A stretch of DNA of 64,000 nt. Origin: Escherichia coli (lineage in GTDB: Bacteria > Pseudomonadota > Gammaproteobacteria > Enterobacterales > Enterobacteriaceae). Every line of letters starts with the position of its first letter. Positions within the stretch are counted from its first letter, which is position 1. Location: NCBI RefSeq assembly GCF_017348835.2, contig NZ_CP071375.1. One strand, 5' to 3'. Below are positions 32,538-49,436 of the stretch, one piece after another. The notes under the pieces are model-generated. The model saw only the letters and a program-made list of their open reading frames with translations. It made no database searches and was not told the origin of the DNA. Made by a program: the position numbers and the translations under genes.

Positions 32538-33406
32538 TGTCCATTTTAATTGATAAAAACACCAAGGTTATCTGCCAGGGCTTTACCGGTAGCCAGGGGA
32601 CTTTCCACTCAGAACAGGCCATTGCATACGGCACTAAAATGGTTGGTGGCGTAACTCCAGGTAAAGGCGGCACTACCCACCTCGGCCTGCCGGTGTTCAA
32701 CACCGTGCGTGAAGCTGTTGCTGCTACTGGTGCTACCGCGTCTGTTATCTACGTACCAGCACCGTTCTGCAAAGACTCCATTCTGGAAGCCATCGACGCA
32801 GGCATCAAACTGATTATCACCATCACTGAAGGTATCCCGACGCTGGATATGCTGACCGTGAAAGTGAAACTGGACGAAGCAGGCGTTCGTATGATCGGCC
32901 CGAACTGCCCAGGCGTTATCACCCCGGGTGAATGCAAAATCGGTATCCAGCCGGGTCACATTCACAAACCGGGTAAAGTGGGTATCGTTTCCCGTTCCGG
33001 TACACTGACCTATGAAGCGGTTAAACAGACCACGGATTACGGTTTCGGTCAGTCGACCTGTGTCGGTATCGGCGGTGACCCGATCCCTGGCTCTAACTTT
33101 ATCGACATTCTCGAAATGTTCGAAAAAGATCCGCAGACCGAAGCGATCGTGATGATCGGTGAGATCGGCGGTAGCGCAGAAGAAGAAGCTGCTGCGTACA
33201 TCAAAGAGCACGTTACCAAGCCAGTTGTAGGTTACATCGCTGGTGTGACTGCGCCGAAAGGCAAACGTATGGGCCACGCGGGTGCCATCATTGCCGGTGG
33301 GAAAGGGACTGCGGATGAGAAATTCGCTGCTCTGGAAGCCGCAGGCGTGAAAACCGTTCGCAGCCTGGCGGATATCGGTGAAGCACTGAAAACTGTTCTG
33401 AAATAA
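32537..33406 (+). CDS. sucD: Succinyl-CoA synthetase alpha subunit
   Basis: 289-aa [42 protein letters not shown]... Confidence 0.97.
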
Positions 33407-33508
33407 ATATCTGTAATAAGAAATAGCCCTCGCCGCTTCCCTCTACAGGAATGGCGAAGGGCTGTCGGTTTCGACATGGTTGGCCATCGTATGATGGCCT
33501 TTTTTATG
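33407..33508 (+). ncRNA. sdhX: 3'-UTR-derived small RNA SdhX (RybD) ending at the operon terminator
   Basis: Segment directly after the sucD stop with hairpin agccctcgcc...ggcgaagggct and terminator hairpin ggccatcgtatgatggcc + TTTTTT; matches my recollection of the sRNA made from the sdh-suc 3' UTR. Confidence 0.55.
33482..33508 (+). terminator. Rho-independent terminator of the sdhCDAB-sucABCD transcript
   Basis: ggccatcgtatgatggcc stem-loop followed by TTTTTT. Confidence 0.85.
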
Positions 33509-34072
33509 CCTTAAACGGTTAACCACGGTCGAAATCTGACTGCAGGCTTGACTGCATGACCACAGCCACTGTGGATTGTCGCAACCGACCGCAAGCCACG
33601 AATAAGAACGACGGCGAATTTCGAATCGTTACCTGATGCACTGGCTTCCCAGCGTTTGACCGTAGCGTTAAGTAAATCAACAAAAGCGATGTTCACCGCT
33701 TTTCGTCAAGTCGTGCCATTTGTCAGCCAGGATCGGGTCTTTACCCCGGATATTGCAGCATCGCAAAAATTCTTAGAGGGATATGCTATAAATCAAAAAT
33801 AAAATCTTTGTTGATTGTTTATCATAATATCCACAGATATGATAAATGATATCAATTTAATAATTTTCACTTAATGTGATTCCGGATAATTCGAAAGGCG
33901 CTGTGCTTTTCGGATTATTATTATCTGATTAAGATATTTGTCACGCCAGGCTTACTGGTTTATAAATGTCAATCATGATTCTTATAAATTATTTATTGCT
34001 GCTTTGGTTACCATTACTTCGTAATAAGTAATGTATTTTTGATTGTTTAAACTATTTTTAAGGGACGGCATT

Positions 34073-34978
34073 ATGCGAGGGAAAATACCTAAAACGGAAC
34101 TGCTGGTGACTTTTGAGGTCGTCGCACGTCATGAAAGTTATACCAGAGCGGCAGAGGAGTTAGCGTTAACCCAAAGTGCAGTATTCAGACAAGTAAGTGC
34201 GCTGGAGGAATTTTTACGTACTCCGTTATTTTCACACTCTAAAAAACGTATTTTTCTTAATGATGCAGGGAAGTATTACCTGGGGATAGTAAAAGAAACA
34301 TTAAATAAGCTGGAACGCGATACCAATACCATTATGACCTGGCAGCCTACGGTTCAGGTTATTGAACTTGCCGTTAATCCTACTTTTAGTACCCACTGGT
34401 TAATCCCAAATTTACATGAATTCACAAAGTTACATCCCGATATTATTGTTAATATTCATTCTTTAGCTAATAACGGCGATTTTCTTAATCGGGAGTACGA
34501 TGCTGTCATTATGCGCGAAAATTTTTGCGCGCCCTGGGCGGAAGTAGAATATCTCTTTGATGAGGAGATTTTGCCGGTATGCAGCGGCAGTTTGCTTGCA
34601 ATGTCCGATCAAAAACTGTCAGTGGCAGAACTGCTTACTGAGTTACCGCTTCTGCATCAAAGCACCCGTATTACTGGCTGGGAAGAGTGGTTTGCTTTAT
34701 CTGGCGTTAGCAGTCCGCTGGTCAATAACGGACCACGTTTCGATTTGCTATCAATGCTGATTGCCGCCGTGCGCTCTAATCTCGGCGTGGCGCTGTTACC
34801 ACGTTTCGCTATTCAACATGATTTGGATAGTGGCGATATGGTGATCCCCTGTGATGTGCCTATTCGTACCGGTAATCGTTTTATTATGACGTGGCAGGAA
34901 GAGAAGTCTGACTCACCGCACTTGCAGCAATTTCGTGAATGGTTGCTGGTGAAATCGGTCGTACCGCAGGAGATGTAA
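34073..34978 (+). CDS. LysR-type transcriptional regulator (candidate regulator of the adjacent operon)
   Basis: ORF 34043..34978; ATG at 34073 with AGGGA RBS; N-terminal HTH (ELLVTFEVVARHESYTRAAEELALTQSAVFRQVSALEEFL) typical of LysR regulators plus a C-terminal substrate-binding domain. Confidence 0.85.
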   Translation: MRGKIPKTELLVTFEVVARHESYTRAAEELALTQSAVFRQVSALEEFLRTPLFSHSKKRIFLNDAGKYYLGIVKETLNKLERDTNTIMTWQPTVQVIELAVNPTFSTHWLIPNLHEFTKLHPDIIVNIHSLANNGDFLNREYDAVIMRENFCAPWAEVEYLFDEEILPVCSGSLLAMSDQKLSVAELLTELPLLHQSTRITGWEEWFALSGVSSPLVNNGPRFDLLSMLIAAVRSNLGVALLPRFAIQHDLDSGDMVIPCDVPIRTGNRFIMTWQEEKSDSPHLQQFREWLLVKSVVPQEM

Positions 34979-34981
34979 AAC

Positions 34982-35008
34982 CTGCGCCTGGCGGGATGCC
35001 AGGCGCAG
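34982..35008. terminator. Bidirectional hairpin terminator between the convergent LysR gene and adenosyltransferase gene
   Basis: ctgcgcctgg-cgggatg-ccaggcgcag perfect 10-bp stem flanked by T-rich sequence on both strands. Confidence 0.7.
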
Positions 35009-35011
35009 TTA

Positions 35012-35614
35012 TTACCAGTCGATACCCGGCTGGGCCTGAATGCCGTTATCAAAAGCATGTTTGACGGGGCGGATTTCGCTTACCGTATCCGCCATTTTTA
35101 ATATCTGACTGTGGCAACCGCGTCCGGTGACAATGACACTTTGTTGTGCCGGGCGGTTTTGCAGAGAAGCGATCACTTCTTCGGTATCCAAATAATGGTA
35201 AGCCAGCATATAGGTCAGCTCATCAAGCACCACTAAGTCGTAACGCTTGTCAGCCAGCATCCGTTTGCTTTCCGACCAGACCTCTTTCGCCGCGTCGATA
35301 TCCGCTTGCCGGTTCTGTGTCTCCCAGGTAAAACCAGTTCCCATAATATGAAACTCAACCCCCAGCGGCTGGAGAAGGTTGTATTCGCCGTTGTCCCATT
35401 GCCCCTTGATGTACTGCGCAACCCCCACCGTTTTGCCATGACCCACCGCGCGCGTCACAGTACCAAACGCGGCAGTGGATTTCCCTTTGCCGTTGCCGGT
35501 GAAAACAATCAAGATCCCTTTTTTCTCTATCGCCGCTGCGACGCGCGTATCGACCTGTTCCTTCAATTTCTGTTGGCGCTGCACATGCCGTTCAGTTGAA
35601 ATTCGCGCTTCCAT
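35012..35614 (-). CDS. ATP:cob(I)alamin adenosyltransferase (BtuR/CobO/CobA family) paralogue
   Basis: 200-aa ORF MEARISTERHVQRQQKLKEQVDTRVAAAIEKKGILIVFTGNGKGKSTAAFG... closely parallels E. coli BtuR (IIIVFTGNGKGKTTAAFG P-loop, RPVKHAFD); last gene of the operon. Confidence 0.85.
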   Translation of the reverse strand: MEARISTERHVQRQQKLKEQVDTRVAAAIEKKGILIVFTGNGKGKSTAAFGTVTRAVGHGKTVGVAQYIKGQWDNGEYNLLQPLGVEFHIMGTGFTWETQNRQADIDAAKEVWSESKRMLADKRYDLVVLDELTYMLAYHYLDTEEVIASLQNRPAQQSVIVTGRGCHSQILKMADTVSEIRPVKHAFDNGIQAQPGIDW

Positions 35615-35623
35615 TCATTTTCC

Positions 35624-37276
35624 TTAATGTCCCGCAGGGCAACTGGCGCAGCGATGTTGCTGCTCAAACTGACTAAAGAAATTATTGCCTTTATCATCTA
35701 CCAGGATGAATGCGGGCAGATTTTCCACTTCCATCATCCACACCGCTTCCATACCCAGCTCCGGATATTCCAGGCAACGCAGACTTTTGACATATTCTTG
35801 CGCCAGTAACGCAGCTGCACCGCCAATACTTCCCAGATTGAAGCCGCCATGTTTGTGACAGGCATCGGTGACCTGCTGGCTGCGGTTACCTTTCGATAAC
35901 ATCACCAGACTGCCGCCAGCCGCCTGGAAGGTATCGATATAACGGTCCATTCGACCGCCCGTGGTTGGACCCAGTGAACCGCAGGCCATGTTCTCCGGTG
36001 TTTTCGCCGGGCCAGCGTAATAGACAATATGATGCTTCAGGTACTCCGGCATCGATTCGCCGCTATCCAGCCGCGCTTTTATTTTGGCGTGGGCGATATC
36101 GCGCGCCACTACGATGGGACCACTTAACGACACGCGGGTGCCTACCGGTAATCTGGCGAGATCCAGCATCACGTCACGCAACGGACGGTTTAGATCCAGT
36201 TGTACATGTTGCGCGTGATTTTCTTCCCGCAATGAGGCTGGAATATATTGCCCCGGATTGTGTTCGAGTTTTTCCAGCCAGATACCGTGTTTGTTAATTT
36301 TTGCTTTGATATTGCGATCGGCAGAACAGGAGAGCGCCATAGCTATCGGGCAAGAGCCACCGTGACGCGGCAGACGAATGACGCGAATATCATGAGCGAA
36401 ATATTTCCCCCCAAATTGTGCACCAATACCAAATTGCTGACTGGCCTCGAGCAACACTTTTTCCAGCTCAATATCACGGAATGCTTGTCCCTGCTCGTTT
36501 CCGCTGGTGGGCAAATTGTCGTAATATTTCGTTGAGGCCAGCTTGGCAACTTTTAAGGTTTGATCGGCTGAAAGCCCTCCGACGGCAAAGGCGATGTGGT
36601 AAGGCGGGCAGGCAGCGGTGCCCAGCGATTTCATTTTTTCGATTAAAAATGCGGTCAGTTTTTCTGGTTGCAATAAGGATTTGGTTTCCTGATAAAGCGC
36701 GGCTTTATTGGCAGAGCCGCCTCCTTTATTAACACAGAGGAAATGGTACTCATCACCAGCGACAGCGCTGATATCAATCTGCGCCGGGAGATTGGTTTGC
36801 GTATTGACTTCGGTATACATATCCAGCGGCGCATTTTGTGAAAAGCGCAGATTATTTTCCTGGAAAGTACTGTAAATGCCTTTACTTAAGGCTTCGGCGT
36901 CGTTACTTCCGGTCCATATCTGTTGCCCTTTACTGGCAACAATAGTTGCGGTGCCGGTATCCTGACAGTTGGGTAATACCCCTTTTGCTGAGACTTCAGC
37001 ATTACGTAATAACTGCAACGCAACGTATTTATCATTACTACTGGCCTGCTGATCGTTAAGAATGCTGGCGACCTGTTGCAAATGAGTGGAACGTAAGAAA
37101 AAAGAGGCTTCATAAAATGCCTGCCGGGCAAGCAGCGTTAATGCTTCAGGAGTGATTTTTATCACTTCTTCGCCGTCTAATTCCGTTACTGTAATATGTT
37201 GATCGCTAATTAATGTATATTCTGTACCGTCTTTATTTTGTAGAAACGGTTCTTGCCAGATAAATGGTTTGGACAT
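35624..37276 (-). CDS. fumD: Class I fumarate hydratase paralogue; probable mesaconase (2-methylfumarate hydratase)
   Basis: 550-aa ORF collinear with FumA/FumB ([45 protein letters not shown]); mesaconase role inferred from operon context. The fumD symbol is from memory of an O157:H7 report. Confidence 0.8.
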
Positions 37277-37383
37277 ATTTCACTTTTCACCTTAAACGTT
37301 AGTGTTACTTAATTGCCGTCTAACTTCATGATCCGGCTTATAAAAATGCGTAGTCATTGGCTTCAGATTGCTTAAGAGCCCCC

Positions 37384-38664
37384 TCAGGGCAGAGCAACGT
37401 TCGATTCATTGGTTTTTAATGCTTTACCCCGACAGCCCTCGCCGAAATGTTCGCCTTCCCACCGACTCACCATCGCAGCGCCCATTGCGTTACTCATGAC
37501 GTTTGTCGCGGAACGCCCCATATCAAGGAACGGATCAACGCCCATCAGCAAGATCAGCCCCGCTTCCGGAATATTGAACTGGTTGAGCGTGGCGGCGATA
37601 ACCACCATTGAGGCGCGTGGTACGCCAGCCATTCCTTTCGAGGTCAACATCAGGATCAACAGCATGGTGATTTGCTCACCGATGGATAAATGGATATTGC
37701 AGGCCTGGGCGATGAAAACTGTGGCGAAGGAGCAGTAGGCCATTGATCCAACGAGATTAAATGAGTAGCCAATGGGTAAGACAAAGCTGGCAATTTTGGG
37801 GGAAACGCCAAATTGCTCCAGTTTTTCAAGCGTTCCCGGAAAAGCCGCTTCAGAACTGGATGTGGTAAATGCCAACAGGGCGGGTTCCGAAAGGGCGCGG
37901 GTCAGGCGTCTGATGCAGGGGCCGACATAAACGATGGCCAGACCGATAAGCAGCACCCAAAGTAATAACATGGTGAAATAAAATTCACCCATAAAGATCC
38001 CGGCGCTCACCATAACGGCCAGTCCTCGTTCAGCAATCAATGCTGAAATAGCGGCGAATACGGTCAGGGGAGCGAAGAGCATGACGTAGCCAGTGAGCTT
38101 TAACATGGCATGTGCCAGCGAATCTAAGGCGTGAACGATGGCGCTGCCTTTCTCGCCAATCGCCGTCAGGCTACAGCCGAGGAAAATTGAGAACACCACG
38201 ATTTGCAAAATTTCATTGTGCGCCATGGCATCGACAATGCTGGTGGGGAAAGCATGCGAAATAAATACTTTTAGCGTAAAGGGTTCTGCCGCGACCACTC
38301 CGGTGGTTTCGGCACCGTGTGCAACAAAATTAATTCCTGTACCTGGCATGAAGAAATTTACCGTTATCAAGCCTAAGGCAATTGACAGCAATGAGGCGCA
38401 AATAAATAAAAAGAGTGTTTTAGAAAAAATACGACCAAGGGCTTTAGCATCGCCCATTTTAGCAATACCTACCACCAGGGTAGAAACCACTAACGGAGCG
38501 ATAATCATTTTTATCAGTCGTAAGAAAATCGTCGTGAATATCGATATTTCTTGCGCATAGAGTTTTGCTGTTTCCGGTGAAGCAGTGTTATTGAGCACTA
38601 CGCCGATAATCATTCCAAGTACCAGCGCCAAAAGAATCATCGTGGTTAAACTTATTTTCTTCAT
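37384..38664 (-). CDS. Dicarboxylate/amino acid:cation symporter (DAACS, GltP/DctA-like)
   Basis: ORF 37384..38685; start MKKISLTTMILLALVLGMIIG preceded by GGAGG RBS; multi-pass membrane protein of the DAACS family. Confidence 0.8.
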   Translation of the reverse strand: MKKISLTTMILLALVLGMIIGVVLNNTASPETAKLYAQEISIFTTIFLRLIKMIIAPLVVSTLVVGIAKMGDAKALGRIFSKTLFLFICASLLSIALGLITVNFFMPGTGINFVAHGAETTGVVAAEPFTLKVFISHAFPTSIVDAMAHNEILQIVVFSIFLGCSLTAIGEKGSAIVHALDSLAHAMLKLTGYVMLFAPLTVFAAISALIAERGLAVMVSAGIFMGEFYFTMLLLWVLLIGLAIVYVGPCIRRLTRALSEPALLAFTTSSSEAAFPGTLEKLEQFGVSPKIASFVLPIGYSFNLVGSMAYCSFATVFIAQACNIHLSIGEQITMLLILMLTSKGMAGVPRASMVVIAATLNQFNIPEAGLILLMGVDPFLDMGRSATNVMSNAMGAAMVSRWEGEHFGEGCRGKALKTNESNVALP

Positions 38665-38719
38665 TTTTTCCTCCATCAGGTGCACGGCGATAAATCAGAA
38701 TCAGGAGAAGTAGATGCCT

Positions 38720-47531: not shown

Positions 47532-47867
47532 TTTTAATTCTTGAAAAAAATCTGCAAAACACGATAAATTGTCGTAGATCAAATTGGTGAGATCGTGACA
47601 ATTTCGCTATAAATTGATCACTGTCGAAAAATGCAAATTTGCTCAATAAAAACCTGTTTATTGTAAGGATTTTGCGGCGTAATATAATTACGGGATCAAT
47701 TTGGTTTATTCATTAACATATTTGTAACTTTTTTATCATTGTCTTTTCCTCTTTTGATGAAATGGCAACGATAGAGGCGAGCAAATAATTTTGTATTGGG
47801 GCATGCGTGTGACCCTTTCTAACGGGGTTCACTCTCGGAGTCTTCATGCGATGAGCAAGGAGTCATG

Positions 47868-49436
47868 ATGTTAGATATAGTCGAACTGTCGCGCTTACAG
47901 TTTGCCTTGACCGCGATGTACCACTTCCTTTTTGTGCCACTGACGCTCGGTATGGCGTTCCTGCTGGCCATTATGGAAACGGTCTACGTCCTTTCCGGCA
48001 AACAGATTTATAAAGATATGACCAAGTTCTGGGGCAAGTTGTTTGGTATCAACTTCGCTCTGGGTGTGGCTACCGGTCTGACCATGGAGTTCCAGTTCGG
48101 GACTAACTGGTCTTACTATTCCCACTATGTAGGGGATATCTTCGGTGCGCCGCTGGCAATTGAAGGTCTAATGGCCTTCTTCCTCGAATCCACCTTTGTA
48201 GGTCTGTTCTTCTTCGGTTGGGATCGTCTGGGTAAAGTTCAGCATATGTGTGTCACCTGGCTGGTGGCGCTCGGTTCAAACCTGTCCGCACTGTGGATTC
48301 TGGTTGCGAACGGCTGGATGCAAAACCCAATCGCGTCCGATTTCAACTTTGAAACTATGCGTATGGAGATGGTGAGCTTCTCCGAGCTGGTGCTTAACCC
48401 GGTTGCTCAGGTGAAATTCGTTCACACTGTAGCCTCTGGTTATGTGACTGGCGCGATGTTCATCCTCGGTATCAGCGCATGGTATATGCTGAAAGGTCGT
48501 GACTTCGCCTTCGCTAAACGCTCCTTTGCTATCGCTGCCAGCTTCGGTATGGCTGCCGTTCTGTCTGTTATTGTTCTGGGTGATGAATCCGGCTACGAAA
48601 TGGGCGACGTGCAGAAAACCAAACTGGCTGCTATTGAAGCTGAGTGGGAAACGCAACCTGCGCCTGCTGCCTTTACTCTGTTCGGCATTCCTGATCAGGA
48701 AGAGGAGACGAACAAATTTGCTATCCAGATCCCTTACGCGCTGGGCATCATTGCAACGCGTTCCGTGGATACTCCAGTTATCGGCCTGAAAGAACTGATG
48801 GTGCAGCATGAAGAACGCATTCGTAACGGGATGAAGGCGTACTCTCTGCTTGAGCAACTGCGTTCTGGTTCTACCGACCAGGCGGTTCGTGACCAGTTCA
48901 ATAGCATGAAGAAAGACCTCGGTTACGGTCTGCTGCTGAAACGCTATACGCCAAACGTGGCTGATGCGACTGAAGCTCAGATTCAACAGGCAACCAAAGA
49001 CTCCATTCCGCGTGTAGCGCCGCTGTACTTCGCGTTCCGTATCATGGTGGCGTGTGGCTTCCTGCTGCTGGCAATCATCGCGCTCTCTTTCTGGAGTGTC
49101 ATCCGCAACCGCATTGGCGAGAAAAAATGGCTGCTGCGCGCCGCGCTGTACGGTATTCCGCTGCCGTGGATTGCTGTAGAAGCGGGCTGGTTCGTGGCTG
49201 AATATGGCCGCCAACCGTGGGCTATCGGTGAAGTGCTGCCGACAGCTGTGGCGAACTCGTCACTGACCGCAGGCGATCTCATCTTCTCAATGGTGCTGAT
49301 TTGCGGCCTGTATACCCTGTTCCTGGTGGCAGAATTGTTCTTAATGTTCAAGTTTGCACGCCTCGGCCCAAGCAGCCTGAAAACCGGTCGCTATCACTTT
49401 GAGCAGTCTTCCACGACTACTCAGCCGGCACGCTAA
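47868..49436 (+). CDS. cydA: Cytochrome bd-I ubiquinol oxidase subunit I
   Basis: 522-aa product [41 protein letters not shown]... (ORF track starts one Met earlier). Confidence 0.97.

Follow-up and report, generated by a model that had tools for sequence, protein, structure and literature searches.

A CobA-type adenosyltransferase gene, cobO, at the end of the methylaspartate-pathway island of Escherichia coli

Why should a glutamate-mutase island of Escherichia coli carry its own corrinoid adenosyltransferase gene, cobO, when the host already possesses BtuR, whose presence counts against the need for a second enzyme? We analysed this question in a stretch of 64,000 nucleotides from contig NZ_CP071375.1 (hereafter, the window). 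The ordinary reading, in which a CobA-type enzyme serves glutamate mutase, proved to be the best supported, and the view taken in a preliminary description of the sequence largely holds. The gene itself is already known: Kronen & Berg 2015 (PLoS One, PMC4682846) drew it in their Fig 5 as 'CobA, cob(I)alamin adenosyltransferase' within the 'glutamate fermentation' cluster of O157:H7, where the same gene was labelled and not analysed, and RefSeq/PGAP names the identical gene of strain PE164 cobO (WP_000388207.1). The finding is an ordinary one because cobO was thus already annotated and drawn in 2015, and the observation amounts to a correct annotation with modest consequences. No further paper treating island cobO was recovered by our literature search. 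What we add is incremental, namely the clade structure of the protein, the selection acting on it, the restriction of the linkage to Enterobacterales, the existence of variants without cobO and a difference at Arg165.

The island is inserted at ~33.5-47.8 kb of the window, after sdhCDAB-sucABCD and before cydAB, and the pig isolate PE164 is 100% identical to the window over 14.5 kb. The genes follow each other on the minus strand in the order glmS-glmL-glmE-mal-DUF1446-DUF4387-gltP-fumD-cobO (Table 1). The gene had initially been described as closing the operon, and it is indeed the last of the minus-strand run, its stop codon being followed by a hairpin which is the top-ranked terminator-like site within 33400-47900. 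Proteins GlmS, GlmL, GlmE, Mal and FumD all scored above their equivalog cut-offs and their genes are contiguous on the minus strand; the island is thus the enterobacterial methylaspartate-pathway (FumD) cluster of Kronen & Berg 2015. The published order of the cluster (GltP, FumD, CobA, LysR regulator) agrees with that of the window, and the O157:H7 orthologue of FumD has been biochemically characterised (PMC4682846). No citrate or citramalate lyase gene was found between sucD and cydA, so that the complete pathway of the Clostridium type is not encoded there.

Table 1. Features of the cobO region and of the island genes in the window
Feature	Position	Strand	Evidence or remark
LysR-family regulator, convergent with cobO	34073..34978	+	next to cobO or fumD in every enterobacterial version inspected
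Terminator-like hairpin, 11 pairs (9 G-C) then GTTTT	34982..35008	-	between cobO stop and convergent LysR gene
cobO: CobA/CobO/BtuR-type ATP:co(I)rrinoid adenosyltransferase, 200 aa	35012..35614	-	profiles, structure match, RefSeq cobO
fumD-cobO junction, 9 nt	35615..35623	-	fumD stop TAA overlaps Shine-Dalgarno TAAGGAA
fumD: class I fumarate hydratase / mesaconase	35624..37276	-	NF011921, 1271 bits vs cut-off 1060
gltP/dctA-like dicarboxylate/amino acid:cation symporter	37384..38664	-	start codon per RefSeq annotation
DUF4387 protein	38825..39142	-	Pfam PF14330, E 7.6e-39
AtuA-family (DUF1446) protein	39139..40509	-	Pfam PF07287, E 6e-18
mal: methylaspartate ammonia-lyase	40513..41754	-	TIGR01502, 544.9 bits
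glmE: glutamate (methylaspartate) mutase subunit E	41754..43199	-	TIGR01503, 866 bits
glmL/mutL: glutamate mutase accessory (reactivating) protein	43218..44606	-	NF040745, 509 bits vs 475; Pfam MutL
glmS: B12-binding subunit S, DCHAVG (DxHxxG) base-off/His-on motif	44606..45055	-	PDB 1I9C, E 1e-49

The region between glmS and cydA has a different composition. It is AT-rich over 45100-47860, with a GC content of 0.35-0.37 vs ~0.52 in the island core, and it contains the minus-strand promoter-like sites closest to glmS on the upstream side. Two minus-strand open reading frames of this stretch, 45614-46036 and 46118-47062, gave no match (Pfam for both; NCBIfam for the first). In K-12 this position is occupied by mngR-mngA-mngB, which are absent here.

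The cobO open reading frame is complete from its ATG to its stop codon. Its product matched the Pfam family PF02572 (CobA_CobO_BtuR) with an E-value of 4.7e-64 and 216 bits for a cut-off of 25.7, covering positions 1-172 of the 172 of the profile. It also scored 295.6 bits against NCBIfam NF004637 (cut-off 185) and 246.6 bits against TIGR00708 cobA (cut-off 167.75). These scores are far beyond chance. The P-loop GNGKGKST spans residues 40-47, so that the BtuR/CobO-like paralogue bearing this motif which had been read from the letters was recovered by both the motif and the PF02572 and TIGR00708 matches. The structure of Salmonella CobA (PDB 1G5R) aligned with the protein from end to end with no gap (E 2.5e-88, ~70% identity), and two further Salmonella CobA structures, 1G64 and 4HUT, aligned without internal gaps; identity to K-12 BtuR is 67%. 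Residues F95 and W97 correspond to F91 and W93 of Salmonella CobA, whose importance is reported by Moore et al. 2012. The other adenosyltransferase families left no trace in the protein: the Pfam search at E <= 0.01 returned only PF02572 and PF12557, hence no PduO-type match (PF01923), and neither the Pfam nor the NCBIfam scan reported a EutT-type family.

We next considered which enzyme this protein would serve. The B12-binding subunit GlmS retains the DxHxxG cobalamin-binding motif, and GlmL and GlmE are intact. Since the motif is kept, the need for adenosylcobalamin is a real one, as had been assumed of glutamate mutase from the start. The gene cobO probably encodes a functional CobA-type adenosyltransferase, made together with FumD and supplying adenosylcobalamin to the mutase. 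In the mechanism that we propose, CobO would move the 5'-deoxyadenosyl group of ATP onto reduced cob(I)alamin or other corrinoids, and the resulting adenosylcobalamin would serve GlmS/GlmE. GlmL would free damaged cofactor and CobO would adenosylate it again, the whole forming a module of local supply and repair. The data establish the family of CobO, its retained catalytic motifs, the order of the genes, the selection and the distribution; the activity of CobO, its co-expression with the mutase and its link to GlmL are what we infer here.

The gene organisation bears on the co-expression. The 9-nt gap between fumD and cobO is also found in Salmonella, Enterobacter, Citrobacter, [E.] lignolyticus and a divergent Escherichia, and the Shine-Dalgarno sequence at the fumD stop reads TAAGGAG in the other genera vs TAAGGAA in this E. 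coli. The overlap of stop codon and Shine-Dalgarno sequence suggests that fumD and cobO are translationally coupled. Further upstream, intergenic stretches of 107 nt and 160 nt precede fumD and gltP, respectively, so that the co-transcription of cobO with glmSLE is plausible but unproven. As far as coupling can be read from the letters, cobO appears tightly coupled to fumD only. A search of 33000-48000 for a cobalamin riboswitch or any other Rfam family returned none at E <= 1.

One alternative is that cobO is decaying or has become a non-functional duplicate. The presence of btuR would make its function redundant, and Kronen & Berg detected neither methylaspartase activity nor expression of the cluster in the single strain tested (PMC4682846). 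In the same work, glutamate had no effect on growth, with or without hydroxo-, cyano- or adenosylcobalamin, and citramalate lyase activity was likewise not found. Citrobacter amalonaticus does express methylaspartase according to Kato & Asano 1997, as cited there. Against decay, island cobO was detected in 1121 of 5426 complete E. coli genomes, in 1122 copies, all of them full-length and 97.3-100% identical; the O157:H7 copies show 99.2% DNA identity. Pairwise dN/dS between genera is ~0.05 (0.04-0.06) for cobO where dS is unsaturated, compared with 0.02-0.05 for the neighbouring glmE, mal and fumD, and the catalytic motifs are invariant. These data on selection and intactness effectively rule out a pseudogene, and we hold a decaying duplicate to be so improbable as to be negligible.

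The same genomes were used to verify that the housekeeping copy is present as well. In a search for distant matches, the number of places exceeded the number of matching records by 1121, exactly the count of island carriers, and PE164, the identical strain, has two matching adenosyltransferase places. This equality of surplus and carriers indicates that the island carriers also keep btuR, in agreement with the housekeeping btuR that the preliminary description had set alongside the island copy. As the island copies are intact, evolve at a dN/dS of ~0.05 and keep their conserved coupling to fumD, cobO is under strong purifying selection and is maintained for function alongside btuR. Near matches on possible plasmids (H76-H79) occurred only in records of 0.4-4.9 Mb, with no sign of plasmid mobility; the fumD-cobO records of the plasmid collection are apparently mislabelled chromosomes or megareplicons.

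To compare the two copies at the residue level, an alignment of 117 island-type and 119 housekeeping-type protein sequences was built. In 102 columns, the two groups share one residue with a conservation of at least 98% in each. The shared residues comprise, in S. enterica numbering, G36-N-G-K-G-K41, T43, R51, F91, W93, D127, E128, Y131 and R161, and the equivalents of F91 and W93 are invariant in all 117 and 119 sequences. In the P-loop, Ser replaces Thr42 in 117/117 sequences of the island clade, the remaining positions being invariant in both clades. CobO thus resembles Salmonella CobA and E. coli BtuR by its family, its length class, its 67-70% identity without internal gaps and its retention of the P-loop, F91/W93, D127/E128 and R161.

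The two groups nevertheless form distinct clades. The island-type clade of 200 aa is found in E. coli, Salmonella, Citrobacter, Enterobacter, [E.] lignolyticus, Klebsiella oxytoca and Lelliottia. Identity is at least 82% within each clade and 63-72% between the island clade and the 196-aa housekeeping clade; both forms coexist within Citrobacter koseri and likewise within C. portucalensis. The clades differ in 17 substituted columns that are at least 95% fixed, including T42S, P70D, R74Y, D136H, K189Q and Y196W, and in a two-residue N-terminal insertion; the N-terminal extension of the island clade amounts to 4 residues. Arg165, present in 119/119 housekeeping proteins, is never found in the island clade, where it is mostly replaced by Ala, Ser or Thr (Ser in the window protein). 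The window protein retains the equivalent of Arg9 (R13); Arg9 and Arg165 of Salmonella CobA have been reported to dock flavodoxin (FldA). CobO therefore departs from CobA and BtuR by its N-terminal extension, by T42S and Y196W, by the loss of Arg165 and by its genomic context, btuR being found in the order yciK-btuR and island cobO after fumD in a catabolic island.

These differences raise the possibility that CobO is a specialised variant of CobA, with another electron donor for the reduction of Co(II) to Co(I), another corrinoid range, or a direct hand-off of adenosylcobalamin to GlmS. The 17 fixed columns, the N-terminal extension and the replacement, throughout the main island clade, of an Arg165 that is invariant in the housekeeping proteins all point in this direction. 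However, fixed differences are expected in any old pair of paralogues at 67% identity, every residue checked near ATP and the corrin is conserved, and the docking role of Arg165 can serve as a lead only. Moreover, Arg165, Thr42 and Lys189 are all still present in the fumD-linked CobO of Yersinia aldovae, and position 165 is a Lys in the fumD-linked copy of Enterobacter sp. ENT03; the substitutions of the clade are thus no requirement of the linkage to glm. We consider such a variant unlikely. The fuller version, of a CobO that is not redundant because it uses another reductant or corrinoid range, or because it loads GlmS in a closed repair cycle with GlmL, strikes us as equally doubtful. If true, it would make CobO the first CobA-type enzyme dedicated to one B12 enzyme. 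As for the origin of the island clade, a duplication inside Enterobacterales is hinted at by the mixed signature of the Y. aldovae copy.

We then determined how widely the adenosyltransferase accompanies glutamate mutase. A GlmE scan using a 3-sequence alignment as query, with one genome per species, recovered 80 loci. A CobA-type gene lies within 10 kb in 12 of these 80 loci, all from Enterobacterales, and in 0 of the 64 non-enterobacterial glutamate-mutase loci. Among the loci scanned, linkage of cobO is confined to Enterobacterales, and glutamate mutase therefore does not as a rule need a dedicated adenosyltransferase. A PduO-type gene was likewise found near none of the mutase loci of the 80 species at E <= 1e-3, a single-sequence phmmer search that may miss distant members; the query was a Lactobacillus PduO sequence, which scored 200 bits against PF01923.

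Within Enterobacterales, island-type cobO follows fumD in the glm-mal cluster of Salmonella, E. cloacae, C. amalonaticus, [E.] lignolyticus and a divergent Escherichia. Pseudescherichia vulneris (locus L024, 15793-18354) and Escherichia sp. ESNIH1 (locus L023) have an island at the same sucD site that runs from glmS to fumD without cobO. Because these islands exist, cobO is not obligatory, and it is dispensable to the island within Enterobacterales. In the islands without cobO, fumD and the convergent LysR gene share 18 nt, and no remnant of cobO is visible. In Budvicia and Morganella, both fumD and cobO are missing within 10 kb of the glm cluster. In Yersinia aldovae, fumD-cobO forms a separate unit on the opposite strand, ~3.8 kb from glmS. 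The tight linkage of cobO is thus to fumD and not to the mutase genes. The AtuA-family gene of Y. aldovae (locus L021, 12674-14061) appears split into two open reading frames (443 and 345 bits), which suggests a frameshift or a pseudogene.

This distribution invites another explanation, that cobO is a generic second adenosyltransferase travelling with fumD, which adds to the adenosylcobalamin pool and has no special tie to the mutase. Its invariant tight partner encodes an Fe-S hydratase that is no B12 enzyme, the pair stands apart from glmS on the opposite strand in Y. aldovae, and some islands do without cobO. The divergence of the pair also exceeds that of glmE and mal: between E. coli and the other genera, dS is saturated and dN is ~0.09-0.10 for fumD and cobO, compared with a dN of ~0.04 and a dS of ~1.2 for glmE and mal, which suggests that the 3' module has its own history. 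Conversely, fumD belongs to the same pathway as the mutase, all the island-type cobO genes whose context was examined lie in or beside a glm-mal cluster, and selection acts as strongly on cobO as it does on the enzymes of the pathway. A generic enzyme with no tie to the mutase is, in our estimate, distinctly unlikely, and supply of the mutase remains the preferred role.

The 3' end of the E. coli island (35012-37383) looks mosaic. A glutaminase gene lies between gltP and fumD in Salmonella, Citrobacter, Enterobacter and [E.] lignolyticus and is absent from E. coli. Beyond the LysR gene, Salmonella enterica (loci L003/L004, 11993-13644) and C. amalonaticus (locus L009, 11979-13630) carry a TP_methylase gene and a PocR-domain AraC-family regulator. 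The TP_methylase resembles uroporphyrinogen-III methyltransferase, and these B12-related neighbours are missing from E. coli.

The origin of the corrinoid differs between hosts. E. coli does not synthesise B12 de novo and has a salvage route only, so that corrinoid has to come from outside. Salmonella, Citrobacter and Klebsiella are B12 producers, and the fumD-cobO module is also found in them; there, endogenous corrinoid would feed the same gene. Dependence on exogenous corrinoids, which the gene had been taken to suggest, thus stands for E. coli as a host but does not follow from cobO, since the module resides in genera that produce B12. In the gut, activity of the E. coli island would depend on corrinoid cross-feeding from other microbes. 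About one fifth of E. coli strains, O157:H7 included, would hold a B12-dependent route from glutamate to citramalate as well as the final coenzyme-activating step, and this built-in activation would be useful for designing conditions that switch the pathway on.

Other B12-dependent systems offer points of comparison. The pdu and eut clusters, like the island, combine a B12-dependent pathway with its own adenosyltransferase beside a reactivating factor: PduO is paired with PduGH/PduS and EutT with EutA, as CobO would be here with GlmL. PduO and EutT belong, however, to protein families unrelated to the CobA-type CobO, and the island encodes neither a microcompartment nor a corrin reductase of its own like PduS. 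In Salmonella, cobA compensates only partly for the loss of pduO (PMC4923194), a precedent for the overlap of a housekeeping adenosyltransferase with one borne by an operon. The clostridial cluster, glmS/mutS-mutL-glmE/mutE-mal-mesAB-citramalate lyase, shares with the island the mutase, the reactivating protein and methylaspartase, GlmS being similar to the sigma subunit of Clostridium glutamate mutase (PDB 1I9C). It differs from the enterobacterial island, which has a fused FumD, the AtuA/DUF4387 pair and cobO, and no citramalate lyase.

Finally, the gene pair AtuA/DUF1446 and DUF4387 recurs directly after mal in 41-44 of the 80 loci, usually together with a fused class I fumarase. It is found in Enterobacterales and in phyla that include Aminicenantes, Riflebacteria and Verrucomicrobia. 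Loci of the Firmicutes type mostly do not have the pair and give weak FumD matches of ~100-120 bits, consistent with a two-subunit mesaconase. The AtuA/DUF4387 pair may supply the step that follows mesaconate or citramalate, whose fate was left open by Kronen & Berg.
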